From: Anaerolineae bacterium
Lineage (GTDB): Bacteria; Chloroflexota; Anaerolineae; Anaerolineales; Anaerolineaceae
Direction of reading: 5' to 3'
Assembly (NCBI GenBank): GCA_013178095.1
Contig: JABLXK010000017.1
Span: 2,475 to 66,474 of the forward strand
DNA: 64,000 nucleotides
Part shown: positions 26,758-50,087 of the stretch, in pieces
Numbering within the stretch: position 1 is the stretch's first letter
How the letters are laid out: the number at the start of each line of letters is the position of its first letter
Program-made: the position numbers and the translations under genes
Notes under the pieces: model-generated
The model's database searches: none
What the model was told of the DNA's origin: nothing
The model's input: the letters and a program-made list of their open reading frames with translations, nothing else

Positions 26758-27972
26758 TTATTTGAGCGCGGCGGCAGCTTTGCGCAGCGCGTCGGCTTTG
26801 TCAGTGCGCTCCCAGGTCAGATCCAGGTCATCGCGGCCGAAATGGCCGTACGCGGCGACCTTGCGGAAGATTGGTTTGCGTAAATCGAGATCGCGGATGA
26901 TCGCGCCGGGGCGCAGATCGAAGTGTTCCTGCACCAGTTTGGCGATCTGATCGTCGGGTATCTGCCCGGTGCCGAATGTTTCCACGTTCACGCTCACCGG
27001 ATGCGCCACGCCGATTGCGTAAGCTACCTGGATCTCGCAGCGTTCCGCCAGGCCGGCAGCTACCACGTTCTTGGCCGCCCACCGCGCGGCGTAAGCTGCC
27101 GAACGGTCGACCTTGGTCGGGTCTTTACCGGAGAAAGCGCCGCCGCCGTGGCGGCCCATGCCGCCGTAAGTGTCCACGATGATCTTGCGTCCGGTAACGC
27201 CGGAATCGCCCATCGGGCCGCCGGTGACGAAACGGCCGGTCGGATTGACGTGGAAGATGGTCTGGTCGTCCAGCATCTCCGCCGGGATGACCGGTTTGAT
27301 GACGTGTTCGATGACGGCTTTACGGATTTCTTCCTGTGAAACCTCCGGAGCATGCTGGGTGCTGATGACCACGGTGTCCACGCGTACGGGTTTCCCAAAG
27401 CGGTATTCCACGGTTACCTGGCTTTTTCCATCCGGGCGCAGCCAGGCCAGCGTGCCGTCTTTGCGCACTTCTGCCAGGCGGCGGGTGAGCTTCTGCGCCA
27501 GGTAGATGGGCATGGGCATCAGGGCGGGGGTCTCGTTGCAGGCAAAACCGAACATCATGCCCTGGTCGCCGGCGCCGATGGCTTCCACTTCCGCGTCTGT
27601 CATCTGGCCGGATTTGGCTTCCAGGGCCTTGTCGACGCCCATGGCGATATCGCCGGATTGTTTTGCCAGAGCCACCAGCACGGCGCAGGTGTTGTAATCG
27701 AAACCTTTATCGGTATTGTCGTAGCCGATTTCTTTGATTGTGTTGCGCACGATTTCATCGTAGTTTAAATTGGCCTGGGTGGTGATCTCACCCAGCAGCA
27801 TGACAAAACCGGTTTTGGTGGCCGATTCACACGCCACGCGCGAACGGGGATCCTGCGCCAGGCAGGCATCCAGCACGGCATCGCTGACCTGATCGCATAA
27901 TTTGTCCGGGTGGCCTTCGGTCACCGATTCGGATGTGAACAGGTACTTGGCTGATTTCATCATTGTTTCCAT
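26758..27972 (-). CDS. metK: S-adenosylmethionine synthetase
   Basis: [65 protein letters not shown] 10 nt upstream of the start. Confidence 0.97.
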
Positions 27973-28051: not shown

Positions 28052-28175
28052 CTCTCATCTTCCAGAATTACCTTCTGCCGGAATTGGCACCAACGTGCAG
28101 CCGCATCGAATGCGAATGCCGCCAGGTTGCCGAGGTTTCACAGGGCCGATCCCTCCACCTCTCTGGATAAGAGAG
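28052..28175 (-). promoter_or_regulatory. SAM-I (S-box) riboswitch aptamer controlling metK
   Basis: The minus strand reads CTCTTATCCAGAGAGGTGGAGGGATCGGCCCTGTGAAACCTCGGCAACC...GGTGCCAATTCCGGCAGAAGG...GGAAGATGAGAG. This matches the conserved S-box core (CUCUUAUC.AGAG.GG..GAGGGA..GGCCC..UGAA.CC..GCAACC ... GGUGCCAAUUCC ... AGAUGAGAG). Confidence 0.93.
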
Positions 28176-29495: not shown

Positions 29496-30413
29496 CTATG
29501 CGTGCTTGATTAAAAAATTATCAAAATCGTGCACGACGACGCTGTTGGGGAACACCGATTGCGCTTCTTTCTCGACGTCTTTGTCGCGGTAACGGCGCGA
29601 AATGTGGGTGATGAACAATTGCCGCACGTTGGCCTTGACTGCCAATTCAGCCGCGTCCTTTGCGGTTAAATGTGAAAACTCGCGCGCCATTTCTTCCTCC
29701 GGCTGCAGGTAGGTGCCTTCGATCACCAATCCATCGGCTTCCCTACAGTATTCAAGGATAGATTCTGTTTCGCCGGTATCGCCGACAATCACGAATTTCG
29801 TTCCGCGCTCAAAATCACCCAGCACCTGGTCCGGCTGGACTACCCGTCCATCCGGCAGGGTGGTGGGTTGGCCGTTGGCCAAATCCCGCCGCCAGGGCCC
29901 TTGAGGGATTTGCAGGTTTTCAGCAGCATCTGCTAAAAAGGGGCGTTTGCCCTGTTCCTCGAAGATAAAACCGAAACAGTCCGGACCGCGGTGGTTGACC
30001 GGGAAAGCGCTGACGGTCAGCCCCTTTTCTTCAATGATTACGCCTGTTTCGATCGGGATCAGCTTGATAGGGAAAGGCGGCCGTGCGCCGCGAATGACCA
30101 CGCGGAAAAGCAGGTCTTCGATACGTTCCAGCGCGCTCTTGCCGGCGTAGATCTCCAGCTCTTCCATGGCTTCCCAGCGCAGGTAGGTAGATACCAGCCC
30201 GCCGATGCCCAGGATATGATCCAGGTGGCTGTGAGTGACCAGCAGGCGGTTCAACTTGCGGAAACCCAGCCCGGAGCGCAGAATTTGGCGCTGCGTCCCT
30301 TCGCCGCAATCCACCAGGAAGCGGTGTTCATTGTGAATGACGACTTGAGCGGGCAGCCCGCGTTGAACGGAGGGAGCGGAAGCGGAGGTGCCCAGGAAAA
30401 AAAGTTCGAACAA
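29496..30413 (-). CDS. rnz: Ribonuclease Z (tRNA 3' endonuclease)
   Basis: FLGTSASAPSVQRGLPA ... LVDCGEGTQRQ ... LLVTHSHLDHILGIGGL (HxHxDH) ... FITHISRRY. Confidence 0.92.
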   Translation of the reverse strand: MFELFFLGTSASAPSVQRGLPAQVVIHNEHRFLVDCGEGTQRQILRSGLGFRKLNRLLVTHSHLDHILGIGGLVSTYLRWEAMEELEIYAGKSALERIEDLLFRVVIRGARPPFPIKLIPIETGVIIEEKGLTVSAFPVNHRGPDCFGFIFEEQGKRPFLADAAENLQIPQGPWRRDLANGQPTTLPDGRVVQPDQVLGDFERGTKFVIVGDTGETESILEYCREADGLVIEGTYLQPEEEMAREFSHLTAKDAAELAVKANVRQLFITHISRRYRDKDVEKEAQSVFPNSVVVHDFDNFLIKHA

Positions 30414-30653: not shown

Positions 30654-31139
30654 ATGGATATTAAAACAGTCGTCATCGAAAAACCTGAATCCATCAATTT
30701 CATCTTCGGCCAGTCGCATTTTATTAAAACAGTCGAGGATGTCCATGAAGCGCTGGTCAATACCGTCCCGGGCATCAAATTCGGGGTGGCATTTTGCGAA
30801 GCTTCCGGTAAGTGCCTGGTGCGCTGGTCCGGAACGGACGAGGCTATGATTGAGCTGGCGAAGAAGAACGCCTATGCAGTAGGCGCCGGGCATAGCTTTT
30901 TTGTCTTTCTGGGGGAAGGTTTTTTCCCATTGAACGTGCTTAATACTCTCAAGAATGTTCCCGAAATTTGCCACATATTCTGCGCCACGGCCAACCCTGT
31001 CCAGGTGATCGTTGCCGACCTGGGCGGAAGCCGCGCCGTGCTGGGGGTGGCAGATGGGGAGCAGCCTAAAGGTATTGAAGGCGACGAGGATATTGCCTGG
31101 CGCAAGAACTTCCTACGCCAGATTGGATATAAAGCTTAA
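30654..31139 (+). CDS. Adenosine-specific-kinase family (Pfam Adenosine_kin/DUF355-like) protein
   Basis: About 160 aa. FGQSHFIKTVEDVHEALV...PGIKFGVAF ... AGHSFFVFL ... NVPEICHIFCATANP pattern, as I recall it for this family. Confidence 0.7.
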   Translation: MDIKTVVIEKPESINFIFGQSHFIKTVEDVHEALVNTVPGIKFGVAFCEASGKCLVRWSGTDEAMIELAKKNAYAVGAGHSFFVFLGEGFFPLNVLNTLKNVPEICHIFCATANPVQVIVADLGGSRAVLGVADGEQPKGIEGDEDIAWRKNFLRQIGYKA

Positions 31140-35021: not shown

Positions 35022-35498
35022 TTACGAAGGGCTTGCGATGGGGGCGAAGCGCACGTTGACCAGTTTGGCCAGGTCTTTGGGGCTGAGGCGGATTTGCAAA
35101 CCCCACTGCCCGGCAGAGACCAGCACCGCGTCCAAATCCTGGGCGGAAGCGTCGATCACCACCTGAAAACCCTTGTTGATCAACGCCAGCGGCGAGATGC
35201 CGCCGGCCTGCAAGCCGGTCAGCGCTTCGGCTTCGGCCTGCGTGGTGACGTGCACCTTTTTTTCATTCAGGCAGGCTGCCAGCGCTTTATTGTCTACCTC
35301 GCCGGTGGCGGGCACCAGCGCCAGGATGGGCTTGCCGGCTTTCTCGCGTTTGGCCACGATAGTCTTGAACACCGTGGCGGGCGGTACCTTCAGGATTTCC
35401 GCCACCTCCAGCGCGCTCAATTTTTGCACGGGCACGTCCAGGGCGGTGAAAGCCACCTTGCGGGCTTCCAGCATGCGGGTGACGTTATTGGTTGTCAT
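35022..35498 (-). CDS. ybaK: Cys-tRNA(Pro)/Cys-tRNA(Cys) deacylase YbaK
   Basis: Co-linear with E. coli YbaK as I recall it (VFKTIV ... TGLQAGGISPL ... VIDASAQ ... VSAGQWGLQIRLSPKDLAKL). Confidence 0.88.
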   Translation of the reverse strand: MTTNNVTRMLEARKVAFTALDVPVQKLSALEVAEILKVPPATVFKTIVAKREKAGKPILALVPATGEVDNKALAACLNEKKVHVTTQAEAEALTGLQAGGISPLALINKGFQVVIDASAQDLDAVLVSAGQWGLQIRLSPKDLAKLVNVRFAPIASPS

Positions 35499-36087: not shown

Positions 36088-37020
36088 TTAGTTTTCGGCA
36101 TTGCGGTGCATGCTGCTCAGGGCGCGCACCTGAGCAGCCGCGTGGTAGGAGGAGCGCACCAGCGGCAGGCTCTCCACCCAGCGGAAACCGATCTCCAGCC
36201 CAAAGCGTTTCAGTTCGGCGAATTCCTCCAGTGTGTAATAGCGTTCGATCGGCAGGTGCTTGCGGCTGGGCTGCAAATATTGCCCGATGGTGAGGATATC
36301 CACATTCCATTCGCGCAGCAGGCGCATGACCTCGCGCAGCTCGTCCATTGTTTCACCCAGCCCGACCATCAGGCCGGACTTGGTGAGCACTTCATTATCC
36401 AGTTCTTTCGCGCCGGTCAGCACGGCTCGCGACCATTCCAGCCGGTCGGAGGGTTGCACGCGCGCGAACAGGCGCGGCACGGTTTCCAGGTTGTGGTTGA
36501 GGATCTCGGGGTGCGCGTCCATGACGATCTTCAGCGCTTCAGGATCGCCGCGGAGATCCGGGATAAGCACCTCCACCGAACAGCCCGGCTGCAGCGCGCG
36601 GATGCGCCGAATGACGGCCGCGAAAATGCGCGCGCCGCCCAGGTTGTCGTCATCGCGGTCCACGCTGGTGATGACGGCGTGCCGGAGCCCCATGGCTTTG
36701 ACCGCCTGAGCCACGCGCTCGGGTTCTTCCGCGTCGATGGCGCCCGGCCGGCCGTGCTTGATGTCGCAAAAGCCGCAGCGGCGCGTGCACACGTCGCCCA
36801 GGATCAGGAAGGTAGCCGTGCCGCTGCCCCAGCATTCGCCCATGTTCGGGCAGCCGGCTTCTTCGCACACGGTGTGCAGTTCCTTGCTGCGCATCATGCC
36901 CTTCAACTGGTCGTAGGTTTCACCGGAGGGCGCGCGCACCTTGATCCAGTCCGGCCTGCGCCGGGGTGTGGTGTCAATTTCGGCGGGATTGACCCGCTCG
37001 CGGGTGGGTGCTTTGCTCAT
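36088..37020 (-). CDS. lipA: Lipoyl synthase
   Basis: [12 protein letters not shown] and radical-SAM CTRRCGFC clusters. C-terminal RSSYHA. Confidence 0.95.
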
Positions 37021-37069
37021 GGTTAGTTTGCTCCGGAGGGAATTATACATGCAGGCAAGGTGGAAAAGA

Positions 37070-37101
37070 ATCTGTGTTCATCCGTGTTTATCTGTGGTTA
37101 A
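37070..37101. repeat. REP-like element of the CCACAGAT family
   Basis: ATCTGTGTTCATCCGTGTTTATCTGTGGTTAA in the lipA/rsmI divergent spacer. The same family occurs at 33288-33346, 46421-46447 and 46499-46510. Confidence 0.5.
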
Positions 37102-37109
37102 ATTGGTTT

Positions 37110-37781
37110 ATGCTTTATATCGTAGCCACCCCCATCGGCAATTTGGGCGACATCAGCCTGCGCGCGCTGGAAACCCTGCGCGCGGTGGACGTGGTCGCCA
37201 GCGAAGACACGCGCAAGACCGGCATCATGCTCAAACATTTCGAGATCAGCAAACCGCAGGTCTCTTTTTACGAACAGAACGAGCACAAGCACCTGCCCAG
37301 GCTGATCGGTATGCTGAAAGAGGGCAGAGACGTGGCGCTGGTCAGCAACGCCGGCACACCCGGTGTATCCGACCCCGGCTTCACGCTGGTGCGCGCCGCG
37401 CTGGCGGAGGGCATCGCGGTCACGGCTGTGCCCGGGCCCAGCGCGCTGATCATGGCGCTGGTGCTTTCCGGCTTGCCGGTGCACGCTTTCACCTTCCGCG
37501 GTTTCCCACCGCGCAAGTCCGGCGCGCGCCGCAACTTCCTGGCAATCGACCAGGCCTCGCCGCATACACTGATCTTTTACGAAAGCCCCTACCGGCTGGT
37601 GGATTTCCTCAAGGATGCCCTGGCTGTGTATGGCGACCGGCCGGCCGCGGTGGCCAACGACCTGACCAAGAAATTCGAGGCCATCACGCGCGGCCCGCTT
37701 TCCGAGCTGATCGAGCGTTTTGGCAAGGAGGAGAAGCTGTTGGGGGAGTACACAGTGGTAATTGGGGGACGGGACGACTGA
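37110..37781 (+). CDS. rsmI: 16S rRNA (cytidine1402-2'-O)-methyltransferase RsmI
   Basis: [34 protein letters not shown], tetrapyrrole-methylase-fold signature of RsmI. Confidence 0.9.
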
Positions 37782-37899: not shown

Positions 37900-38634
37900 C
37901 TACACCGGCGAGAATTTCGTGCCGATGTCGTAATAATCCTCGTTCTCGGCCTTCTTCAGCCGATTTACTACCCAGTATGTCGCAGGCGTGAACAGCACCT
38001 CGACGCTTACCTTGAAAATGTAATTGGTCAGCACCAGGCTGGCGAAAGACACCCAGGGGAACACGCCCGCCAGCGTGGCGATCAGGATGAACACCAGTGA
38101 GTCCACGCCTTCGCCTACCAGCGTGCTGCCGATGGTGCGTGTCCACAGCCATTTGCCTTTGGTGAGGATTTTCATCACCGCCAGGATGACCGAGTTGCTG
38201 AACTCGCCCATCAGGTAGGCCAGCAGGCTGGCGGCCACCAGTCCGAAGGAAGTCATTCCGCCCAGGATGGCGTCGTAAGCGGTGTCGCCGGCGTAACCCT
38301 GCCAGGCAGCCTCGCCCGGCAGCGCGCGCACCAGCGCCAGCACCAGGGCGCTCAAGGCCAGCGCGCCGAAACCGCTCCAGATCACGCGCCGCGAGCGCTT
38401 GAAGCCGTAAACTTCGGTGAGCACGTCGCCGAAGATGTAACTGATGGGGAAGAGCAGTGTGCCGCCGTCGAAGGCCAGGCGCACCCCGAAGAGCGAGAAC
38501 CCCCAATCGATGATCTTGGCGGAGGAGGCGATGTTGCTGGTGATCAACACGGTCACGAACAGCGCCATCACCAGGTCCAGGTAACGGTAGCTGCGTTCTT
38601 TTTCCGGTTTAAGTTCCTGTATCTTTTCAGCCAT
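37900..38634 (-). CDS. yhhQ: Queuosine-precursor transporter (YhhQ/DUF165, VUT family)
   Basis: YRYLDLVMALFVTVLITSNIASSK-type start, LFPISYIFGDVLTEVYGF, polytopic. ATG 38634 preferred over the listed TTG 38655. Confidence 0.85.
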   Translation of the reverse strand: MAEKIQELKPEKERSYRYLDLVMALFVTVLITSNIASSAKIIDWGFSLFGVRLAFDGGTLLFPISYIFGDVLTEVYGFKRSRRVIWSGFGALALSALVLALVRALPGEAAWQGYAGDTAYDAILGGMTSFGLVAASLLAYLMGEFSNSVILAVMKILTKGKWLWTRTIGSTLVGEGVDSLVFILIATLAGVFPWVSFASLVLTNYIFKVSVEVLFTPATYWVVNRLKKAENEDYYDIGTKFSPV

Positions 38635-38674
38635 AGGTATAATTTCAGGTAGCAAGGATTATAAACGATACGAG

Positions 38675-39430
38675 ATGAGCACCCAGCGCTTTTTCCTCCC
38701 CGATGATTGTTTTCAGCCGAATCTCGTGACTTTTCCAGAGACGGTGCAGAACCAGATCAACCGCGTGCTGCGCCTGCGCGAGGGCGAGGAGGTGATCGCG
38801 CTGGACGGGCACGGCCTGCAATACCGCCTGCGCCTGGAGCAGAATGCCGCAGGGCTTTTCCAGGGAATAATCCTTTCAAAAGAAGAAAATCCGGCCGAGC
38901 CGGCCGTCCACTTGACCCTTTACATATCCCTGACCCAGCGCGAGAAGTTTGAACTCATCCTGCAAAAAGGCAGCGAAGTTGGGGTGGCGGCCTTTCAGCC
39001 CTTCATCTCCTCACGCTCGTTGATCCAGTGCGGCGATTCCTTTAACAAAAAACGCGAGCGCTGGGAAAGCATCCTGCGCGAAGCGGCCGAGCAGTGTGGG
39101 CGCGGGCGCATCCCGCAATTGCTGCCACCCTTGAGCCTGACTGAGGCGGTGAAAGTCGCTGCTGCCCGGCATGCCTTGAATCTGGCGGCTTGGGAGGACG
39201 AGCGGCAGGTCGGCTTGGGCAGTGCGCTGGTGGGATTCGATGGCAAAGGAACTTTGGGGTTGTTCGTCGGACCGGAAGGCGGCTTCGACGCTTCTGAAAC
39301 CGGGCGCATGCGCGCGGCGGGCATGCGCGTTTTTTCGCTGGGGCGGCGCATCCTGCGCATGGAAACGGCCGCCATGCTGGCGCCTGCGCTGGTGCTGTAT
39401 CAACTGGGGGAAATGAATCCGCGGGATTGA
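38675..39430 (+). CDS. rsmE: 16S rRNA (uracil1498-N3)-methyltransferase RsmE
   Basis: QRFFLP ... NRVLRLREGEEV N-terminal PUA-like part. C-terminal SPOUT knot LFVGPEGGF ... SLGRRILRMETAA. Confidence 0.9.
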   Translation: MSTQRFFLPDDCFQPNLVTFPETVQNQINRVLRLREGEEVIALDGHGLQYRLRLEQNAAGLFQGIILSKEENPAEPAVHLTLYISLTQREKFELILQKGSEVGVAAFQPFISSRSLIQCGDSFNKKRERWESILREAAEQCGRGRIPQLLPPLSLTEAVKVAAARHALNLAAWEDERQVGLGSALVGFDGKGTLGLFVGPEGGFDASETGRMRAAGMRVFSLGRRILRMETAAMLAPALVLYQLGEMNPRD

Positions 39431-39454: not shown

Positions 39455-40519
39455 TTAAAGACTATCTGCGTTGACTTCCTGCAGGAAAATCTCCACCTGC
39501 TGCAGATACCATGCCGGTTCGCCGATGTGGATGCCATGGCTGGAATCGATGAAGGCATAGCGCAGGTTCTTGACCAAAGATTTGATCTGATCCACGTCCT
39601 GTGAATCCATGGCGCCCAGCAATCCCCAGTAGGCGTGGCGTGACCAATGCGCCTGCATCAGCAGCATGGGACACTTGACCTTTTTGAGCGCGGCCAGCGG
39701 ATCAAAATCCCGGCTGAGGCGGCCGTCGATGGTGGCTTTGGAAAAGTCCACATCGTATTCCATGAAGAATTTCACTCCCACGCGCATCTCAAACGGCAAA
39801 AAGGGCACGTCATAGGGCTGATTGGGTTTCAGGCGGCGGTTGACCGCGTAAAGCGCCATCAGGATTTTTAATACCGCGGGCGGGACCATCAGCAGCTCTT
39901 CCTGCCCTTCTTTGGGCGCGCCGGAATTGGCTAAGTAAGCCTCCAGGTTGGGCCCGGTTGGAGAGCCTAGGTTGTCGATAGCCACCTGGAACATGCGCCG
40001 CATGTACCTCTCTTCAGTGATGCGCGGATAAATGGAGGAGAACATGGGCGGATCCTCGGAAATAACCGCTCTGACCCACTCGGGGGCGTAAGCCCCCAGC
40101 CAGACCGCCAGCACGCCGCCGGAGGAAAGTCCGGAGACGATGGCCGGTTCGCCGATCACCTGTGCGATGAATTGCTTCAGGTCATCACCGCAGATATTGT
40201 AAGAATACTGTCCCGGCGTGCGCGTGGATCGGCCATGCCCGCGCAGGTCGACCGAGAAGACGTGGTATTTCCTGGCCAGTTCGGGCATGACCGACTTATA
40301 GCCCTGCCAGGATTCCATCTGCCCCGGAATTAACAGAAAAGGCAGCCCATTTTTCGGCCCCTCCACGTAATTCAGGGTAATGTTGTTGATGACGCATTGC
40401 TTTTCGCTGAATCCCTGCGGGGTGCCGGCCACGCTGATCTTGTGAGGCACGAAAAAGACCACCAGCCAGAACAGGATGAAGATGATCAGGTTGATTCCCA
40501 GGGTTGTCCAGATATTCAT
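39455..40519 (-). CDS. Alpha/beta-fold hydrolase with N-terminal membrane anchor
   Basis: N-terminal TM helix. GLSSGG nucleophile elbow (GxSxG). Late SSHGIH. Confidence 0.8.
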   Translation of the reverse strand: MNIWTTLGINLIIFILFWLVVFFVPHKISVAGTPQGFSEKQCVINNITLNYVEGPKNGLPFLLIPGQMESWQGYKSVMPELARKYHVFSVDLRGHGRSTRTPGQYSYNICGDDLKQFIAQVIGEPAIVSGLSSGGVLAVWLGAYAPEWVRAVISEDPPMFSSIYPRITEERYMRRMFQVAIDNLGSPTGPNLEAYLANSGAPKEGQEELLMVPPAVLKILMALYAVNRRLKPNQPYDVPFLPFEMRVGVKFFMEYDVDFSKATIDGRLSRDFDPLAALKKVKCPMLLMQAHWSRHAYWGLLGAMDSQDVDQIKSLVKNLRYAFIDSSHGIHIGEPAWYLQQVEIFLQEVNADSL

Positions 40520-40580: not shown

Positions 40581-42038
40581 TTAAAACAACCGCGTCGGCA
40601 GCAGGTTCCTCAGGCGATTTTCCAGCACCTTGGCGCGCCCCAGGTTGCGGCCGAGCGCGTCGCGCACCGCCACCACCTCACCCCGCAAATCCGGGCCGGC
40701 GGCGTAGCCGCGCAGGTCCTCGCCGCGCATCCAGGCGGCCAGGTGTTCGTCCTCCAAAATCAGGATATGACGTGTGAAGCGGTCGCCGAAGCGGCTGACG
40801 AATTCGTGCGAGGGCTGCCAGCCATCCGGCAGGGCTTTGCCCAGCGGCATGCCGCTGCTCAGCCAGGGTAATGCAGGAAAGCGCGCGTTGAGCGCCTTGC
40901 CAATCAGATAAAATTCCCCCCCGATCTCGGCGATCTGCAGGTCGTTTTCCGCCATCAATCGCTCCATTTCCAGGCCATACTGCCCGCTGATGTAATCGAC
41001 CATGCCGCGCGTTTCCACCGGCAGGGGAATCTTCATCTGCCGCGGGCGGGCGGCGTGTGGGTTGAAAGCGGAAGTTGCTGCGGGCAGGCCGGCGGTCTTG
41101 GTCAGGCGCGCGGCGAAGAAACCGGCGGTGTTGAACAGGTGCGGCCACAGGCGCGCGGCTTTGCGTACGTCCTTGGGGAAGGTTTTGCTTTCAAACACTT
41201 CCAATCCCGGCGCGGGCTGGGGCAGCCGGCTGCTGATGTCCTCGACGGCAAAACAGCCGGGGAATTGCTCCAGCAAAGCGGCCAGCACGCCCTCGTCTTC
41301 CTGCGGGGTGAGCGTGCAGGTGCTGTAAACCACCTGCCCGCCAACCTTGACTGCCCGCAAGGCGCTTTCCAGCAGGCGCGCCTGGCGCTCGGCCAGCGCT
41401 TCCACCTCGGTGAGGGTGATGCTGCGCGCCTTGTGTGATTCGCTGGCACGCATGCCCTGCATGGAGCAGGGCGCATCTAATAAAACCGCATCGAATGTCT
41501 CGGGATAGTGCGCCCCGAACCATTCGCCCGGCAGGCAGGTAACCGCCTGGTTGATGGCGCCCCAGGTGCCCAGCACAATGCGCAGCGCGGAGATGCGCCC
41601 GCGCGAAGCGTCGTTGGCCACGATAAAGCCGCGGTCTTGTATACGGTCGGCCAGATGGATGGTCTTGCCGCCGGGGGAGGCGGCCATATCCAGGACGAGA
41701 GGGTGATTGGTATGGCTGAAATCAAAAAGCTCGGCCGGCAGCATGGAAGCAGCCTCCTGGATGTAGTAATACCCCAGGCGGTGTTCGATGGTGCTGCTGG
41801 GCGCGATGCGCGCTTCCTTGATCCAGTAACCGCTGGTGCTGTAAGGTACGGGATCATAGCGCCAGCCATACAGATCAGCCCATTTGCGCATGGCAACATC
41901 CGGGTCGGACTTGAGCGCGTTGACGCGCAGCGAAAGATCCAGCGGCTGCCCGCGCAGCTCCTGCAGGCGCGCGTACAGCGCCGGGTCGGCTTGCGCCAGC
42001 CAGTCGAAGGTGTAAGCGGGCGGGATCGTTTTAGCCAT
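40581..42038 (-). CDS. rsmF: 16S rRNA m5C methyltransferase, RsmF (YebU)-like NOL1/NOP2/Sun family
   Basis: 485 aa, co-linear with E. coli RsmF as I recall it: YIQEAASMLPAELF, LDMAASPGGKT, FDAVLLDAPCS, VYSTCTL, GFFAARLTKT, plus the RsmF-type C-terminal extension ending ...LRNLLPTRLF. Confidence 0.8.
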   Translation of the reverse strand: MAKTIPPAYTFDWLAQADPALYARLQELRGQPLDLSLRVNALKSDPDVAMRKWADLYGWRYDPVPYSTSGYWIKEARIAPSSTIEHRLGYYYIQEAASMLPAELFDFSHTNHPLVLDMAASPGGKTIHLADRIQDRGFIVANDASRGRISALRIVLGTWGAINQAVTCLPGEWFGAHYPETFDAVLLDAPCSMQGMRASESHKARSITLTEVEALAERQARLLESALRAVKVGGQVVYSTCTLTPQEDEGVLAALLEQFPGCFAVEDISSRLPQPAPGLEVFESKTFPKDVRKAARLWPHLFNTAGFFAARLTKTAGLPAATSAFNPHAARPRQMKIPLPVETRGMVDYISGQYGLEMERLMAENDLQIAEIGGEFYLIGKALNARFPALPWLSSGMPLGKALPDGWQPSHEFVSRFGDRFTRHILILEDEHLAAWMRGEDLRGYAAGPDLRGEVVAVRDALGRNLGRAKVLENRLRNLLPTRLF

Positions 42039-42852
42039 GCCGTTTCATCCAGAACACCGTCTCGCCGGGGAAATCCAGTTCGCCGCGCGCTTCCCATTCC
42101 GCGGGGTTGAGGTTATCCGCCACCAACCCGCGCATGCGTTCGCGCAGGTCGCGCTTGCCGTCCAGGCTGCGCCGTGGCAGCGAAACGAACAGGTATTTCA
42201 CTTTCAGTGCGGACCACAAGGCGCGGTTGCAGCCCTTGCGGCGCTTTTCCAGGCGGTGGGCTTCTTTGAACAAGAACGCAGCGTCGGCTTCCACTTGCGG
42301 TGGCCGCACCAGAATATCGCGCACCTCGGCCAGCGCTTCTTTTCCGCTCAAACGCAAGAAATCGGTGATCAGTGCCACGCGCGGCGGATGGATATCGTAG
42401 GCGTAATAACGCGCGCCGGACGGCAAGCCAATCCAGGGCAGGGCGAAAGGGTTCAACCCGCAGGCCAAATCCAGCACGGATGCTGGCTGCCCGCAGATTG
42501 CGAAAATCTCTTTATAGAAGTCTTCCAGATAAACCAGGCGTTCGCGCGTGGAATCGTGCTGCTGCAAGAAAGCGCGGCAGGTGTCTTTTACCGCATCGGG
42601 TCCGCTGCTGAAGGCCGCTTGCAGTTCCTGCGCGGCCTGCGCGTAATCCAGGTCGCCCAGGTAGGGCGCCATCACGTTGTGCAGCTTGGCGCGCGCGCTT
42701 TTCAGCGCCTCGGCCGGTTTCTTGTAACGCGATAATTCCAGAGCCAGCAGGTCGCGCAGGGTTTCCTCGGGCAGCTCCAGGCCTTTATAGGTCTTGCCCG
42801 CGCGCAGCTGCGCCATCAACCCTTCCAGATCGCTGCTCTTTTGCGGGCTCAT
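42031..42852 (-). CDS. FmrO-family (ArmA/Rmt/Sgm-type, 16S rRNA G1405-N7 class) methyltransferase homologue, copy B
   Basis: HDSTRERLVYLEDFYKEIF, LDLACGLNPFALPW, ARYYAYDIH, FLFKEAHRLEKRRKG, LFVSLPRRSLDGKRD. ATG 42852 forms an ATGA overlap with copy A. Its stop overlaps the rsmF start by 8 nt. Confidence 0.78.
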   Translation of the reverse strand: MSPQKSSDLEGLMAQLRAGKTYKGLELPEETLRDLLALELSRYKKPAEALKSARAKLHNVMAPYLGDLDYAQAAQELQAAFSSGPDAVKDTCRAFLQQHDSTRERLVYLEDFYKEIFAICGQPASVLDLACGLNPFALPWIGLPSGARYYAYDIHPPRVALITDFLRLSGKEALAEVRDILVRPPQVEADAAFLFKEAHRLEKRRKGCNRALWSALKVKYLFVSLPRRSLDGKRDLRERMRGLVADNLNPAEWEARGELDFPGETVFWMKRHG

Positions 42853-43661
42853 TTTTCCACCAGGTAAGCCAGTTCGCTGGGAAAGTCGAAGCGCGTGACC
42901 TTCCACTTTTTATCGGCGGTCAGGGCTTCGAACTGGGCGGAGTAGGTTTGGCGCATGCCCTTGGATTTGCCGCCCAGGCTGCGGATGGGGTAGCTGGCTA
43001 AAATGTACATAGCGGGAATGTTTTCCAGCATTTCCTGCGCGCACCCTTTTTCCAATTGTTCCAGGCAGGGCAGGCTTTTCAGCAGCAGGGCCAATTGCAC
43101 AGGCTTGCCTATGGTATAGGAAAATACATCGGCGCTGGTCAGCCCGGCATGCAGGCCGCAGTGCGTCAGGAAGGCGTTGTCGAAATCGATCAGGTCGCTG
43201 AAGATGTCGCAGCCGCCGTAACGCGCGCCGCTCGCCAACGGCATCCAGGGCAGCGCCAGCGGATTCAGTCCGCAGGCCAGGTCGGCCAGCGATTCCAGCG
43301 GCGCGAGCGAAGCCAGCGTCTCCCTGAAAAAATCTTCCAGAATGGGCAGGCGTTCGGCCGTGGAGCTGTGCGCCTGCATGACTTTCAGGCAGAAAGCGCG
43401 CACGCCCTCGTCGGCGGGGTCGCCGGGCAGGTTTTCCAGCTCGGTTTTCCATTGTTTGTAACGCGGAGCCAGTTTAAAGTAAGCCGCGCCCACCTGGTGC
43501 AGCTTGGCGCTGACTTCCTTGATTGCTTCCCTGGGCTTGCGCCCCTTGGCCAGCTCGCGTTCGGCAATCTGCATGGCAAGGCCGGGCAGGATGGCGTTGT
43601 ACTTGGGCTTGGACAGCACGGCGGAAACAACTTCCTCGATCAGCGGGTTGTGTTCGTTCAT
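42849..43661 (-). CDS. FmrO-family (ArmA/Rmt/Sgm-type, 16S rRNA G1405-N7 class) methyltransferase homologue, copy A
   Basis: HSSTAERLPILEDFFRETL, ADLACGLNPLALPW, ARYGGCDIF, LLLKSLPCLEQLEKG, ILASYPIRSLGGKSKGM. ATGA overlap with the upstream TGT-like gene. Confidence 0.78.
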   Translation of the reverse strand: MNEHNPLIEEVVSAVLSKPKYNAILPGLAMQIAERELAKGRKPREAIKEVSAKLHQVGAAYFKLAPRYKQWKTELENLPGDPADEGVRAFCLKVMQAHSSTAERLPILEDFFRETLASLAPLESLADLACGLNPLALPWMPLASGARYGGCDIFSDLIDFDNAFLTHCGLHAGLTSADVFSYTIGKPVQLALLLKSLPCLEQLEKGCAQEMLENIPAMYILASYPIRSLGGKSKGMRQTYSAQFEALTADKKWKVTRFDFPSELAYLVEK

Positions 43662-44779
43662 GGCAGGTAAGGGCGCAGCCGCTCCATCAGGCGCGCCATG
43701 AAGTGCAGGTTGTGCTGCGTGGAGAGCTGCTGGTAGAGGCTGTCGTTGAGTTTGTGCAGGTGGCGCAGGTAGCCGATGGAGTAACGGCGGCAGACGGGGC
43801 AGTCACAGCCTTCTTCGATGGGTTGGCTGGATTTAATATAGCGTTCGTCATGCGCATAGACGTAGCCGAACCAGTCATCCTTCTCAAGCAGTGCGGCTTT
43901 GTCCGGCAGGTAGTTGAAGCGGTACAGGCGCCCGTGGCGGGCGTCGCGCGTTGGCATGGCGCTGTCGAACAACCCATAACCCTGCGCAGCGCAGCGCGCC
44001 ACGTAGGGCGGGTGGCCGATGCCGAGTGCGTGCAGCGGGAACTCCGCCGGGATCAATTCTCGCAGGAGGAAGACCATATCCTCCACCAGGTTGCCCTGGT
44101 TGTCCAGCGGCCAGCCGCCATAGCCATAGCCGTCGAAACCGATCTCCAGCAACTGCTCGGCGCAGTGCCGGCGCAATTCGTAGGAATTACCGCCCTGCAC
44201 CACGGCGAACAGTTTGGGCCTGCGCTCCTGCGCTAGGCGTTTTTCGTCCAGCAGGCGATCGAATTCCATGCGGCAGCGCTTGGCCCAGCGCACGGTGCGT
44301 TCCACGGAGGCTTCCTGCTGCGCCATGTCGTCGTCGACGTGCGTGCAGTCGTCCAGGCAGAACAGCAGGTCTGAGCCGAAACCGAGCTGCAGTTGCATGC
44401 ACTTTTCGGGGGTGAGCTGGTACTTGCGCTGGCCGTCCTCGGGCTTGAAAACCAGCCCGTTATCGGTGAACTGGCCGAAGCGCGGACCCTGGCGGATGAG
44501 CGAATAGGCCTGGAATCCGCCCGAATCGGTGAAGATGATGCCCTCCCAGCCGGTCATGGCGTGTAAGCCGCCCAGCGACTTGACTGTAGTGGCGCCGGGT
44601 TTTTGCATCAGGTGGAAGGTGTTCATCATCATGGCGCGGATGCCGCACTGCGCCGTTTCCTCGGCAGCCAGCCCGCGCACCTGCCCGAAAGTGGCATCCG
44701 GCAGGAATTGCGGGAATTCCAGCATTCCATGATTAAAAGCCAAGCGTAATGGATAGGTCATACGCTTGAATTGTATCAT
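43658..44779 (-). CDS. tRNA-guanine transglycosylase (TGT) family protein, divergent
   Basis: TDSGGFQ, LDDCT, FAVVQGG, GYGYGGW, ALGIGHP, LFDSAMPTRDARHG and the Zn site CDCPVCRRYSIGYLRHL. Confidence 0.8.
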   Translation of the reverse strand: MIQFKRMTYPLRLAFNHGMLEFPQFLPDATFGQVRGLAAEETAQCGIRAMMMNTFHLMQKPGATTVKSLGGLHAMTGWEGIIFTDSGGFQAYSLIRQGPRFGQFTDNGLVFKPEDGQRKYQLTPEKCMQLQLGFGSDLLFCLDDCTHVDDDMAQQEASVERTVRWAKRCRMEFDRLLDEKRLAQERRPKLFAVVQGGNSYELRRHCAEQLLEIGFDGYGYGGWPLDNQGNLVEDMVFLLRELIPAEFPLHALGIGHPPYVARCAAQGYGLFDSAMPTRDARHGRLYRFNYLPDKAALLEKDDWFGYVYAHDERYIKSSQPIEEGCDCPVCRRYSIGYLRHLHKLNDSLYQQLSTQHNLHFMARLMERLRPYLP

Positions 44780-44794
44780 CCCGCTTAAACGGGT

Positions 44795-45730
44795 TCAGGA
44801 AAGTACGCTTAGAGCTTGCAGGGTGATCCAGCGCTGGCTGCTGTCGCCCTGCGCCAGCAGCGGCCAGGTGCGCTGTTGGAAGGGGCTGCCGCCGCTCCAG
44901 GTGCCGTTGTGATTGCGCTGCTCGCGCAGCCAGCCCAGCGCGCGCCGCGCCTGTGGGGATTCCAGCGCGTTCAGTTCTTTGGCGATGCGCAGTACAAATA
45001 AAGTATCTGCGTGATAAAAGAGCGGGAAACTGGTTTTGGACCACAGTTCGTGGATCTTTTCCACGTGGGGATAATCGGCCTCCAGCAGGTCGTGATCCTC
45101 CAGCAGGAATTTCAACCCCGCGTGGATGGCTTGCCGGATGGATGAGTTTCTTTTTTCTTCGGGGAGGAGCGCCAGCCCGAACAGGTCGCGCGCTATGCCC
45201 CAGGCGCAGGGCAGGCCGTTGTTGTATTGGCAGCGGCTGAGATTTTGCAGGTCGCGCGTCACGTAGTCCAGGATGAATTCAACGCTCTCCACTTGGGCCT
45301 GGCAATAAAGCTGATAACGCAGCACGTTGCCCCACAAACAACCCCAAAAGGACTCTTTTCTCCCCTGTAAGCGGATGTCTTTTTCCATGCATTCGCGCAT
45401 GAAAGCTGCGCCCTTTTGCATAGCGGGGTGCTGCGGATCGATGCCCAGTTCGCTCAACAGCAGCATGCTCCAGTGGCTGCTGCGGTATTTGGGGGAATAA
45501 TAATGGCGGGGATTTTGCCAGTAGCCTTCCGGCTGCTGCTTTTCAAGAATGTGTAATACGGGATTAGTGCTGGCAATCAAACGCCTGGCTGCTTGCGTTT
45601 CCGCGTCCTCTTCCGGCTTTCCCAAAATGCGGGTCAGGGTCAGGTAGCGGATGGAGGGCGTGGGGCTCTCCAGCAGCCAGGCGATGGTTTTTGAATTGTC
45701 GCTGGTGTTTACTTGTTTATTTTCACCCAT
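44795..45730 (-). CDS. Hypothetical protein, possibly alpha/alpha-toroid (prenyltransferase/terpene-cyclase-like repeat) fold
   Basis: 311 aa. Repeated aromatic-rich helical hairpin pattern (EGYWQN ... SHWSMLLLSELG ... NGTWSGG). Stop lies 15 nt upstream of the TGT-like start. Confidence 0.45.
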   Translation of the reverse strand: MGENKQVNTSDNSKTIAWLLESPTPSIRYLTLTRILGKPEEDAETQAARRLIASTNPVLHILEKQQPEGYWQNPRHYYSPKYRSSHWSMLLLSELGIDPQHPAMQKGAAFMRECMEKDIRLQGRKESFWGCLWGNVLRYQLYCQAQVESVEFILDYVTRDLQNLSRCQYNNGLPCAWGIARDLFGLALLPEEKRNSSIRQAIHAGLKFLLEDHDLLEADYPHVEKIHELWSKTSFPLFYHADTLFVLRIAKELNALESPQARRALGWLREQRNHNGTWSGGSPFQQRTWPLLAQGDSSQRWITLQALSVLS

Positions 45731-45742
45731 GCAAGCATTATA

Positions 45743-46240
45743 TTATGAGCGCTTGCGGAACAGGGCGGAAAAAAGGGTGATTACGCCGATGCCGATCAGG
45801 AACAGCGGCCAGAGCGTGCCGACGCCCAAGTTGAGTCCGAAGGTACCGCCGAAGATGATGAAGCCCATTGCGCTGATAGCCATCAGCACCAGGCCGCCGC
45901 TGTCGAAGCGCGGATGTTCGCGCGAAAGCAGGCCGGCGATGATCACGCCCAGGCCGACAAAACCGGGGATGAGTGTCCAGATGTAAGCCCAGCTGGCCCA
46001 GTCGCCCGAGATGGCCTGGTAATAGAGAATGCCGCCGATGCCGCCCACGATGCAGCCGGGGATGGCCAGCCCGCCGGTGCGGGTCAGGATGGCAGCCAGC
46101 AAAAAGGCTGCGCCCACGCCGATCACGATAAAAGGCCAGTAAACGTAACCGAAGATATCCGGGTACATCTGCGTGACGAAGAAGAACCCGCCCAACAGGA
46201 TCAGCAGGATCCCCCATACAATGCCGTGTCGATTTTCCAT
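45743..46240 (-). CDS. Small polytopic membrane protein, function unknown
   Basis: Five or six Gly-rich hydrophobic segments. ATG 46240 (MENRHG) preferred. Stop lies 12 nt upstream of the next gene start. Confidence 0.6.
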   Translation of the reverse strand: MENRHGIVWGILLILLGGFFFVTQMYPDIFGYVYWPFIVIGVGAAFLLAAILTRTGGLAIPGCIVGGIGGILYYQAISGDWASWAYIWTLIPGFVGLGVIIAGLLSREHPRFDSGGLVLMAISAMGFIIFGGTFGLNLGVGTLWPLFLIGIGVITLFSALFRKRS

Positions 46241-46327
46241 GTTTCCTCCAGAAAAATGATTTCGAAATTTCATATCTACTTACGCAGGATTGGCATTTAG
46301 GTTGCTTCGAAGTTTTATTTGCCGTAG

Positions 46328-46555
46328 GTCGGGTTGGTGATCTTCCAACCCGACTAGAAGCTTTTCTGCAATTGTTTTTGCGCATCTGCCAAAGACGGCG
46401 CGGCAATCTCAAATTAATAGAACCACAGATACACTCGGATGAACACTAATAAAAAACCCTTCTGTATTTGCGAGCCGCGGAGCGGCGCGGCAATCTCAAC
46501 CACAGATAAATGAGTTATCGTAGGATGGCTTGGTGATCTTCCAACCCATCACCCT
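46328..46555. repeat. Cluster of three REP-like families in one spacer
   Basis: GTCGGGTTGG-TGATCTTC-CAACCCGAC (46328-46355), GACGGCGCGGCAATCTC (46395-46411), GAACCACAGATACACTCGGATGAACAC (46421-46447), GAGCGGCGCGGCAATCTCAACCACAGATAA (46481-46510), GGCTTGGTGATCTTCCAACCC (46528-46548). Confidence 0.6.
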
Positions 46556-46604
46556 AATCCAGGTTCTTGAGCGTATTTAACTATGGATTTCTTTGTGATT
46601 CCCG

Positions 46605-46645
46605 TAAAAAACTCCGCAGGTTGCGCCTTGTCGAAACCTGCGGAG
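46605..46645 (-). terminator. Rho-independent terminator after the flavodiiron gene
   Basis: The minus strand reads CTCCGCAGGTT ... AACCTGCGGAG followed by T6. Confidence 0.7.
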
Positions 46646-46668
46646 CCAATCAAATTGTTGTCAGGAAA

Positions 46669-47936: not shown

Positions 47937-48155
47937 GATTAATGCTGCAACGGTCAGGGTCTCGATGCCAGGGACGTTCAGTCTCTCTACCGGATTCTTG
48001 CCGGGAGCAAACCCGGCGCGTGGACCTATTCTCAGGCTTCCGCAGAAGCAGTGGCGCAAGGAAAAGAACGGGTTGGTCAGCCCTGTCCGCCTCACCCCAA
48101 AATCATCCTCCAGGCTGCTGATCCTGGCTATAATTCAGGCAGGCAGGAGGAAACC

Positions 48156-48986
48156 ATGATCGAGATACCCGAGGCTATTCATCTGGCTGAACAGTTGAAC
48201 CAAACCGTGCGCGGCAAAGGGATTGCGCGAGCCGTGGCGGCGCAAAACCCGCATAAGTTCGCCTGGTACCAGGGCGATCCGCAGGCTTATCCGGCCCTGC
48301 TGACCGGCCGGATGGTGGGCGAGGCGCGCGGCTTTGGTACGACCGTGGAATTCCGCGCCGGCGATGCGCTGGTGGCCGTTTCGGAAGGCGCCACCTGGCA
48401 TTATCACGCCGACCGCTCGGATATCCCCGCCAAACACCAACTCCTGCTGGAGTTCGGCGACGGCAGCGCGCTCAGCCTGACCGTGCGCATGTACGGCGGG
48501 ATTTTGTGCTTCCGCGAAGGCGAGGCGGAGAATCCCTATTACCTGGCGGCGCGCGACGCGCTTTCGCCTTTATCGGATGACTTCAACTGGGATACCTTCC
48601 AAAAATTGCTTGTATCCCCCGAAATTGGGAAATTGAGCGCCAAGGCCTTTCTGGCCACCGAACAGCGCATCCCCGGGCTGGGTAACGGCTGTCTGCAAGA
48701 CATCCTCTACAATGCCAAAATCCACCCCAAACGCAAGATGGGCACGCTGGATGAAAAGCAGCGCGAGGTTCTTTATCAATCTATGAAGTCTACTTTGGCG
48801 GAGATGACCGCCCGGGGCGGGCGCGACACCGAACCGGACCTGTTCGGCAATCCGGGCGGCTACCACTCGCTGTGCTCCAAGAACACAGTCGGGCAGCCTT
48901 GCGGCCGGTGCGGCAGCCTTATCTCCAAGGAAGCCTACATGGGCGGCAGTGTGTATTTCTGCCCGGTCTGTCAGCCCCTTTTATAA
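48156..48986 (+). CDS. Fpg/Nei-family DNA glycosylase homologue with non-canonical N-terminus
   Basis: H2TH (EQRIPGLGNGCLQDILYNAKIHP) and C-terminal zinc finger (CGRCGS...FCPVCQ). AGGAGG RBS at 48145-48150. N-terminus MIEIPEA instead of MPELPEV. Confidence 0.8.
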   Translation: MIEIPEAIHLAEQLNQTVRGKGIARAVAAQNPHKFAWYQGDPQAYPALLTGRMVGEARGFGTTVEFRAGDALVAVSEGATWHYHADRSDIPAKHQLLLEFGDGSALSLTVRMYGGILCFREGEAENPYYLAARDALSPLSDDFNWDTFQKLLVSPEIGKLSAKAFLATEQRIPGLGNGCLQDILYNAKIHPKRKMGTLDEKQREVLYQSMKSTLAEMTARGGRDTEPDLFGNPGGYHSLCSKNTVGQPCGRCGSLISKEAYMGGSVYFCPVCQPLL

Positions 48987-49870: not shown

Positions 49871-49956
49871 GCGGAGCGACGTGGCGATCTCGGCTGGTAG
49901 AACGAGATATATGCCAGTGTTTGGGATGACACGTCATGAGGGAGTTAAATAAAGAA

Positions 49957-50030
49957 TGGGCGCGGAGGGACTCGAACCCACGACCTTACGGATGTGAACC
50001 GTACGCTCTAACCAGCTGAGCCACGCGCCC
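49957..50030 (-). tRNA. tRNA-Val (anticodon CAC)
   Basis: 74-nt cloverleaf folded by hand: acceptor GGGCGCG/CGCGCCC, D-arm GCTC-AGCTGGTTA-GAGC, anticodon arm TACGG-TTCACAT-CCGTA, T-arm GTGGG-TTCGAGT-CCCTC (one U50-U64 mismatch), discriminator A. CCA is not encoded. Confidence 0.88.
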
Positions 50031-50087
50031 AAATGCAAAAGAATTATAACAAAAAAAAGTCAATGCGATTGGTGAAATTCCAAAATA

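Follow-up and report, generated by a model that had tools for sequence, protein, structure and literature searches.

The closest described relatives of the system reported here include two groups of enzymes. The bacterial Tgt enzymes, such as those from E. coli, Z. mobilis and T. maritima, are tRNA-guanine transglycosylases (TGT), and their fold has been redirected to other nucleic acids in DpdA, which acts on DNA, and in ArcTGT, which acts on G15 of tRNA, often together with partner proteins. The methyltransferases of the FmrO/Rmt/Arm type, among them Sgm, RmtB, RmtC and ArmA, target G1405 in helix 44 (h44) of 16S rRNA and are known from aminoglycoside producers, which they protect against their own antibiotic, and as dangerous genes of acquired resistance. 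We have analyzed a stretch of 64,000 nucleotides (nt) from an Anaerolineae bacterium (contig JABLXK010000017.1, in the following the window), in which an operon at positions 40581-46240 of the minus strand joins members of both groups, a TGT of a distinct subfamily and two FmrO paralogues, FmrO-A and FmrO-B. The single proteins belong to known families; what appears to be new is that a TGT subfamily is paired and fused with methyltransferases of the G1405 type, and that the latter have housekeeping status throughout a phylum. The original prediction for this stretch held that no described system combines the two, and targeted full-text literature searching found none: queries for TGT with FmrO, for G1405 with Chloroflexi and for queuosine with Chloroflexi did not return a description of the linkage, and searches on Rmt/ArmA, Chloroflexota and origin, as well as on a TGT sequence-similarity network, gave nothing relevant.

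The TGT-FmrO pair and its natural fusions

As evidenced by a listing of open reading frames (ORFs) and by direct reading of the junctions, the region contains six co-directional minus-strand ORFs whose predicted gaps and overlaps were all exact, and Pfam and NCBIfam upheld the family assignments that had been made for the TGT, the two FmrO proteins and an RsmF-like protein. Following two lineage-specific genes, the TGT of the PDAT/GGWP subfamily (43658-44779; PF01702, E = 1.5e-88) is succeeded by FmrO-A, a Sgm/Rmt-like 16S rRNA methyltransferase of the type that forms 7-methylguanosine at position 1405 (m7G1405; 42849-43661; PF07091, 1.8e-46), by its paralogue FmrO-B (42031-42852; PF07091, 3e-42) and by the RsmF-like 16S rRNA 5-methylcytosine methyltransferase of the C1407 type (40581-42038; PF01189, 4.8e-33; PF17125, 4.4e-11). 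The first two junctions are gaps of 12 nt and then 15 nt. The stop codon of the TGT gene and the start codon of FmrO-A overlap in the sequence ATGA (43658-43661), FmrO-A and FmrO-B overlap in the same manner (42849-42852), and the FmrO-B stop and the RsmF-like start share the 8 nt ATGGCTAA at 42031-42038. A consensus scan of the operon revealed no convincing internal terminator or promoter, with counts at or below shuffle expectation, in agreement with the earlier statement that no internal terminator is visible. The cluster is a genuine operon, and its conserved core is the coupled pair of TGT and FmrO-A. Judging by the overlapping start and stop codons, the FmrO-A gene is translationally coupled to that of the TGT, although such coupling does not establish the stoichiometric co-production that had been proposed.

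Tight packing by itself is common in bacteria, and the arrangement exceeds chance because it is kept in other genomes. A scan with one genome per species yielded at least several hundred carriers, the best 80 of which were examined and, together with seven loci from protein look-ups, make up a set of 87 loci with flanks of 10 kb. The original prediction had called for a search for linkage of the TGT family with PF07091, and this linkage was borne out: by tblastn and ORF clustering, 74-75 of the 87 loci have a same-strand FmrO gene directly after the TGT, and in 61 the two are no more than 60 nt apart. The best 80 carriers are almost all Chloroflexota (Anaerolineae, Caldilineae, Roseiflexus/Chloroflexaceae/Kouleothrix, Ktedonobacteria including Dictyobacter aurantiacus, and Ardenticatenaceae), with one Chthonomonas metagenome-assembled genome (MAG); a single MAG labelled Acidobacteria is also part of the locus set. 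The pairing loci represent the classes Anaerolineae, Caldilineae, Chloroflexia, Ktedonobacteria and Ardenticatenia, and cultured carriers are Pelolinea submarina, Flexilinea flocculi, Ornatilinea apprima, Thermosporothrix hazakensis and D. aurantiacus. Between classes all other neighbours change, while adjacency persists among TGTs of 56-62% and FmrOs of about 40% identity; in one locus (L091) a TGT merely 43% identical to that of the window is still overlapped by an FmrO gene. In about 12 of the 87 loci the adjacency is lost and the GGWPLD pocket of the TGT, described below, is kept. The phylum-wide core is the TGT with a single type A FmrO, and FmrO-B with RsmF is an extension found in Anaerolineae. 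The six-gene block that had been predicted as a unit holds for this core and fails for its first two genes, since the membrane gene precedes the TGT in 13 and the toroid-like gene in 11 of the 87 loci, exclusively in Pelolinea-like genomes.

The two activities also occur within single polypeptides. By Pfam, protein P0245 (628 residues) consists of a TGT and an FmrO domain, P0301 of a partial TGT and FmrO, and P0256 (710 residues) of RsmI and TGT. A profile search that included the fusions recovered single-chain TGT-FmrO proteins of 628-709 residues in at least eight distinct clusters at 90% identity, from NCBI, JGI, ENA and Logan assemblies, one of them on a 131-kb contig. They form three sequence groups, and both sets of catalytic motifs are intact in them. 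The five members of group I share a mutual identity of just 56-61%, so the fusion either is ancient and has been preserved or originated at least twice. In two loci RsmI precedes the fused TGT-FmrO gene (L088 and L089), and in L089 the two overlap. An AlphaFold2 (AF2) model of P0245 showed well-folded domains (predicted local distance difference test score, pLDDT, of 90), and its predicted template-modelling score (pTM) of 0.60 gave no evidence of a fixed interface between them. Since the pairing is conserved and TGT-FmrO fusions exist, a chance juxtaposition of the window TGT with FmrO-A, considered earlier as a chance fusion of housekeeping genes, is very unlikely. The comparison of genes and proteins indicates that the two are functionally coupled, and they are probably coupled physically as well.

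Two further long proteins of the TGT family carry other additions, a C-terminal ribosomal protein S11 domain in one case and an RNase-H-like RVT_3 domain in the other (P0363 and P0390); these are either real fusions or artefacts of gene calling.

The base pocket of the TGT and the target loops of FmrO

The window TGT is 36-38% identical to E. coli Tgt by tblastn, and 30-38% over the bacterial enzymes from E. coli, Z. mobilis and T. maritima. The best family model is the bacterial Tgt equivalog TIGR00430, whose cut-off of 306.75 bits is marginally missed with a score of 297.6 bits, and the NCBI names of its orthologues are mixed, some being called Tgt and others just 'family protein'. Among the database relatives of the window TGT, the best 120 share 58% identity or more with it, and the TGT of an uncultured Pelolinea MAG reaches 97%; Anaerolineae supply the best homologues. 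The AF2 model (pLDDT 89.7) was matched by Foldseek to Z. mobilis TGT (1q2r, 4leq) with a template-modelling (TM) score of 0.84; PF01702, AF2 and Foldseek all identify the TGT TIM barrel with its C-terminal zinc subdomain. The catalytic residues Asp85 and Asp272, the substrate-binding residues Asp143 and Gln195, and the zinc ligands Cys325, Cys327, Cys330 and His356 are all present; of these, Asp85, Asp272 and the zinc ligands do not vary within the subfamily and align with their counterparts in the Tgt enzymes of E. coli and T. maritima. The TRxAR motif is likewise retained. The model for DpdA scored 16.6 bits against a cut-off of 200, so the idea of a DNA-modifying system, part of the original prediction, was rejected and DNA as a target is unsupported. 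An identity as archaeal TGT was discarded with 100.9 bits against a cut-off of 350 for the ArcTGT model. Unlike both of these redirected enzymes, the window TGT is far closer to bacterial Tgt.

In spite of this similarity the subfamily departs from canonical Tgt at several sites. The N-terminal motif FMPVGT is replaced by (F/Y)LPDAT, with FLPDAT in the window; FDECxP, after the equivalent of Asp156, becomes LDDCTH; MGVG in the region of Met260 becomes LGIGHP; and FDCVxPTRNARNG around the nucleophile is changed to FDSAMPTRDARHG. Two insertions are located near residues 172-185 and 288-303. A further difference concerns the base pocket, where canonical A(V/I)GGL(A/S)(V/I)GE corresponds to GYGGWPLD in the subfamily and GYGGWPLDN in the window. 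Canonical enzymes bind the queuosine precursor preQ1 with a Leu231-Ala232 peptide switch that is held by Glu235; at positions 231-235 the window TGT instead has Trp, Pro, Leu, Asp and a variable residue, and of 86 locus TGTs that were scanned, 85 have a GGWP[LI][DN] pocket. In Z. mobilis numbering we take these changes to be L231W, A232P, V233L and G234D, with loss of E235. With proline at position 232 the peptide switch loses its backbone NH, the group that in canonical TGT binds guanine N7 or the nitrile of the precursor preQ0, and the loss of Glu235 is therefore expected. The change may fix the pocket in a preQ1-type form, or it may point to a substrate of another kind. The genomic context differs as well: bacterial Tgt genes are found with queA, yajC or secDF, none of which adjoins the window gene, which is coupled to FmrO instead.

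An exhaustive search for relatives, covering 1.84 billion representatives, placed the signature within a larger 'PDAT' clade that extends down to about 35% identity. Many of its members have the GGWP pocket; those from bacteria of the candidate phyla radiation (CPR) have GGRH, and FmrO-less members with a readable pocket have GGRH or GGWT. The wider clade also has members in small CPR-like genomes, where the TGT stands alone among housekeeping genes, and no FmrO neighbour was found for these more distant members. No second TGT is present in the window or in the 10-kb flanks of any locus. The ten closest representatives of canonical-type Tgt have names that indicate Binatia, Rokubacteria and Uhrbacteria, not Chloroflexota.

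Both FmrO proteins have the FmrO fold and the Class I S-adenosylmethionine (SAM) motifs HxSTxERL, DLACGLNP and xDI, and both remain below the cut-off of 250 bits of the Rmt family model NF000466, FmrO-A with 195.2 and FmrO-B with 155.8 bits. FmrO-A, whose counterpart in P. submarina is 69% identical, has its best match in the PDB with Sgm (5.9e-46). It retains SKPKY, the N1-domain motif KLH, LLLK and the h44-distorting loop, YPIRSLGGKSKGM, and with these the equivalents of RmtC residues K20, R50, H54, K204, K236, R241 and M245. In RmtC, K204, K236, R241 and M245 position the flipped G1405 and distort h44 (10.1101/712810; PMC10054953). FmrO-A thus shares with Sgm, RmtB, RmtC and ArmA the fold, the SAM motifs, the N1-domain Lys/His and the residues Lys204, Lys/Arg236, Arg/Lys241 and Met245. 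Unlike them it is chromosomal, inherited within a phylum, situated among housekeeping rRNA methyltransferases and outside antibiotic gene clusters or mobile elements, always TGT-partnered, and accompanied by a paralogue with a rebuilt target loop. This paralogue, FmrO-B, is 31% identical to FmrO-A. Its SAM motifs and KLH are present, but LLLKxLPCLEQ is replaced by FLFKEAHRLEK, and the target loop, which reads LPRRSLDGKRDLRERM, lacks the Met245-equivalent KGM, so that the RmtC set of residues for 30S docking, h44 distortion and G1405 positioning is incomplete in it.

The same two types recur in the other loci. Type A, the first FmrO after the TGT throughout the phylum, keeps LLLKxLPCLEQ and FPxxSLGG(R/K)xKGMxxxY, which correspond to Lys204, Lys/Arg236, Arg/Lys241 and Met245, and also the N1-domain KLH. 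Type B, which includes FmrO-B of the window, has FFFKEAHRFEQ and a loop without KGM, with SAM motifs and KLH kept; RsmF comes after it in 40 loci, most of which are from Anaerolineae, and it is the first FmrO after the TGT in L007 and in the Acidobacteria-labelled locus L005. The rebuilt loop provides a natural experiment on how FmrO enzymes choose their nucleotide. In an uncultured Pelolinea MAG (L015, 10730-12373), FmrO-A and FmrO-B share one uninterrupted frame of 547 residues, which is either a real A-B fusion or the result of a lost stop codon or an assembly error; in the sister locus L016 they are two abutting genes.

Candidate substrates of the TGT and proposed reasons for the coupling

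Just downstream of the operon the window contains three partner genes that the original prediction, correct in those that it named, had overlooked. These are RsmE, the 16S rRNA m3U1498 methyltransferase (38675-39430, plus strand; PF04452, 4.3e-41; TIGR00046, 144.8 bits, cut-off 41), a Vut_1/YhhQ-type transporter for the queuosine precursors preQ0/preQ1 (37900-38655, minus strand; PF02592, 2.4e-46; TIGR00697, 106.1 bits, cut-off 50.95), and RsmI, the 16S rRNA C1402 2'-O-methyltransferase (37008-37781, plus strand; TIGR00096, 221.9 bits, cut-off 167.9, with the profile match beginning at about 37110). RsmE follows RsmF in 20 of the loci, 27 loci have RsmI no more than 10 kb from the TGT, and the transporter is found near the TGT in 13 loci, all from Anaerolineae and with 62-82% identity. 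The RsmF-like protein itself combines the RsmB/F catalytic domain PF01189 with the RsmF N-terminal domain PF17125 and has both catalytic cysteines (DAPCS at 188, TCT at 240). As its score of 261.5 bits is below the cut-off of 588 of the equivalog NF008898, we retain the label 'RsmF-like', and C1407 is its presumed target. Some 9 kb hold five h44 methyltransferase genes, the TGT and a 7-deazaguanine importer. With RsmE, RsmI and the transporter joining the genes of the operon, the Anaerolineae cluster is a modification island for h44 and the decoding centre. In E. coli the h44 methyltransferase genes of the RsmE/RsmF/RsmH/RsmI set are scattered, whereas homologues of three of them are clustered here together with two FmrO genes and a TGT.

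The h44 methyltransferases show order-of-operations and interference effects (PMC3923132; 10.64898/2026.07.05.736617), which gives a reason for their co-expression. Resistance methyltransferases for G1405 or A1408 interfere with endogenous methylation of C1402 and C1407 (PMC3923132), and RsmE, RsmF, RsmH and RsmI depend on one another's earlier action on late 30S particles (10.64898/2026.07.05.736617). In the explanation that we favour, FmrO-A, FmrO-B, RsmF, RsmE and RsmI would methylate h44 of such late 30S particles, and housekeeping m7G1405 would render the organisms intrinsically insensitive to 4,6-disubstituted deoxystreptamine aminoglycosides. The TGT would be the lineage's own tRNA-guanine(34) transglycosylase, placing an imported 7-deazaguanine precursor at the wobble position of the anticodon; with proline instead of Ala232 the pocket would be locked in its preQ1-accepting state, and Glu235 would become dispensable. 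The reason why the two activities stay together, and in some cases are fused, may be that decoding accuracy depends jointly on modification of the wobble base and of h44. In Vibrio cholerae, tgt affects growth under sub-lethal aminoglycoside (PMC11703503).

The role of FmrO-A as an rRNA enzyme is suggested by the conserved functional residues of RmtC. For the TGT, we place tRNA G34 as the RNA substrate slightly short of an even chance. This reading builds on the near-equivalog similarity to Tgt, the intact catalytic and RNA-binding motifs and the common fold, on solitary PDAT TGTs in minimal genomes, YhhQ and QueF neighbours and the tmRNA-binding protein SmpB upstream of the TGT in 16 loci, and on precedents for conserved linkage of tRNA-acting with ribosome-acting enzymes. 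Such precedents are fmt-rsmB and tsaB-rimI, stable linkages of tRNA- and ribosome-directed enzymes without a shared substrate, with tsaB-rimI also occurring as a fusion; they differ from TGT-FmrO in that they comprise other enzyme families and no base-exchange enzyme. Several observations weigh against an assignment to tRNA G34. The score falls just below the Tgt equivalog cut-off, and the preQ1-defining residues Leu231, Ala232, Gly234 and Glu235 are all replaced, near-invariantly in the FmrO-linked group. No preQ1 riboswitch was detected in the window or in eight loci, and there is no recurrent neighbour resembling queA, queG or queH among the 87 loci, with QueF adjoining the pair in L007 only. 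Finally, FmrO and RsmI, the partners to which the TGT is fused or overlapped, require the assembled 30S subunit, and a shared 30S substrate fits this fact at least as well.

With such a shared substrate the TGT would be no tRNA enzyme; it and FmrO would work jointly on the 30S subunit, and it would swap a 16S rRNA guanine within h44 or close to it for the imported 7-deazaguanine precursor, a reading that we consider less likely. The exchange could exploit the way in which FmrO distorts the RNA and flips bases around G1405, as RmtC flips G1405 and distorts h44 (PMC10054953), or could employ m7G as an activated leaving group. It would account for fusion and overlap partners that are known only to act on assembled 30S (FmrO in eight clusters and three groups; RsmI in one fusion and the overlap in L089), for the phylum-wide maintenance of the gene pair and for the lack of recurrent finishing genes of the queuosine pathway in the 87 neighbourhoods. 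The rebuilding of the pocket (Trp231, Pro232, Asp234, no Glu235) is tied to the FmrO-linked group, with GGRH or GGWT in the FmrO-less PDAT members that have a readable pocket, and Pro232 forfeits the backbone NH that binds guanine N7. Nevertheless, we know of no base-exchange modification of rRNA in any organism, and h44 lacks a U-G-U context like that of the anticodon loop. A 7-deaza base at G1405 would block the subsequent N7 methylation by FmrO, and fusing a writer of m7G to its remover would be futile. The AF2 model of the fusion is without a confident domain interface, and fmt-rsmB and tsaB-rimI demonstrate that linkage and fusion do not require a common substrate. The reverse case, in which the FmrO partners have moved off rRNA and methylate tRNA or the base inserted by the TGT, for instance at the aminomethyl group of preQ1, would amount to a two-step hypermodification of tRNA. 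Fusions and operons usually link consecutive steps of a pathway, phage DNA is known to contain methylated derivatives of preQ1, neither FmrO type reaches the Rmt cut-off and type B is devoid of the KGM loop; but FmrO-A keeps essentially all residues for docking, h44 distortion and G1405 positioning of RmtC, RmtB and Sgm, and the recurring neighbours RsmF, RsmE and RsmI are all 16S h44 enzymes, which renders this proposal improbable.

A neutral origin, with unrelated housekeeping genes packed in an ancestor and inherited vertically without functional interaction, would agree with the housekeeping character of every gene, with the loss of adjacency in about one locus in seven in spite of the same GGWPLD TGT, and with neighbourhoods that are otherwise variable. 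It does not explain why adjacency survives across classes at the identities given above while other neighbours change, nor the several fusion lineages in which both domains are intact, and we regard it as highly improbable. We find it equally hard to credit that the pair is a self-resistance or acquired-resistance cassette for aminoglycosides in which the TGT is a passenger. FmrO-A is indeed most similar to the producer enzyme Sgm, and in L005 (1-7000) and L007 (1-7800) the genes upstream of the pair are those for DegT-type aminotransferases, GFO/IDH/MocA oxidoreductases, a radical-SAM/SPASM protein, a carbamoyltransferase, a sulfotransferase and glycosyltransferases. This set could represent an aminoglycoside-like pathway, but it is also compatible with ordinary surface-glycan synthesis. 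The arrangement as a whole tracks vertical descent across the phylum, and the survey did not place the pair mainly within aminoglycoside-type biosynthetic clusters or on plasmids and transposons. Next to the window operon there is no biosynthetic cluster, no transposase and no integrase; the neighbours are ordinary metabolic, transport and translation genes, and GC content is even across the region; a resistance island or biosynthetic cluster was rejected for the window on these grounds.

A family known from producer self-protection and acquired resistance appears here as a vertically inherited housekeeping component of a phylum. Its phylum-wide presence would imply intrinsic m7G1405 and a very large environmental reservoir, a possible evolutionary source of Rmt/Arm-type genes. 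The coupling to the TGT would mean either that wobble modification and h44 methylation are managed together as one decoding module, or that the TGT fold was recruited to rRNA. An rRNA-guanine transglycosylase would, if true, represent the first base-exchange modification of ribosomal RNA and a new layer of intrinsic insensitivity to aminoglycosides and of decoding control across Chloroflexota. As several carriers are in culture, both readings of the substrate are directly testable.

Lineage-specific genes, upstream spacer and other neighbours

The first gene of the operon, lineage-specific and outside the conserved core, encodes a small membrane protein of the LiaF-TM type (45743-46240, minus strand; PF22570, 3.1e-6). 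A longer ORF begins at 46273, but a start at the ATG at 46240 is most likely, since GGAGG is located 5 nt upstream and the resulting 165 residues match a Pelolinea orthologue of 164. The second gene, equally lineage-specific, encodes a toroid-like protein of unassigned function (44795-45730, minus strand) with weak similarity to alpha/alpha-toroids; its matches to the squalene-hopene-cyclase repeat in Pfam (E = 9e-4 and 6e-3) did not pass the cut-off, and neither NCBIfam nor a PDB sequence search returned a match. Downstream, at a distance of 61 nt, an alpha/beta hydrolase (39455-40519, minus strand) is conserved in the closest relatives only and is probably not part of the module.

The sole promoter-sized gap is the upstream spacer of 428 nt (46241-46668, minus strand), which contains a terminator and repeats. 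A consensus sigma-70 promoter was sought in this spacer and not found; a hairpin at 46612-46645 followed by a T run is the terminator of the upstream flavodiiron gene. A 29-nt element that is able to fold a GGGTTGG...CCAACCC hairpin is present in two copies (46323-46351 and 46519-46547), and a 17-nt element in two exact copies (46396-46412 and 46483-46499). Neither has further copies in the window, chance expectation being none, and the elements could be regulatory or resemble repetitive extragenic palindromes (REP). In P. submarina the layout is similar, with an H2TH protein, a tRNA gene and the flavodiiron gene preceding the operon. The corresponding features of the window are a Fpg/Nei-like protein with a match to the H2TH domain only (48051-48986, plus strand) and a tRNA-Val(CAC) gene (49956-50031, minus strand).

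In the other loci, the SmpB gene is immediately upstream of the TGT in the 16 loci mentioned above (for example L023, 9484-9999), and in loci labelled as Caldilineae (L043, L071 and L083) it is usually preceded by two genes for Ctp-type S41 peptidases; a Ctp peptidase recurs near the TGT, likewise in 16 loci. Other genes of the window related to RNA or translation encode a tRNase-Z-like metallo-beta-lactamase (29496-30413), a PF04008 'adenosine-specific kinase' protein (30654-31139) and a protein with a YbaK-type aminoacyl-tRNA editing domain (35022-35498), and a lipoyl synthase is encoded at 36088-37050. A SAM (S-box) riboswitch was identified with 87 bits at 28052-28173 on the minus strand, upstream of a minus-strand ORF of 404 residues (26758-27972).

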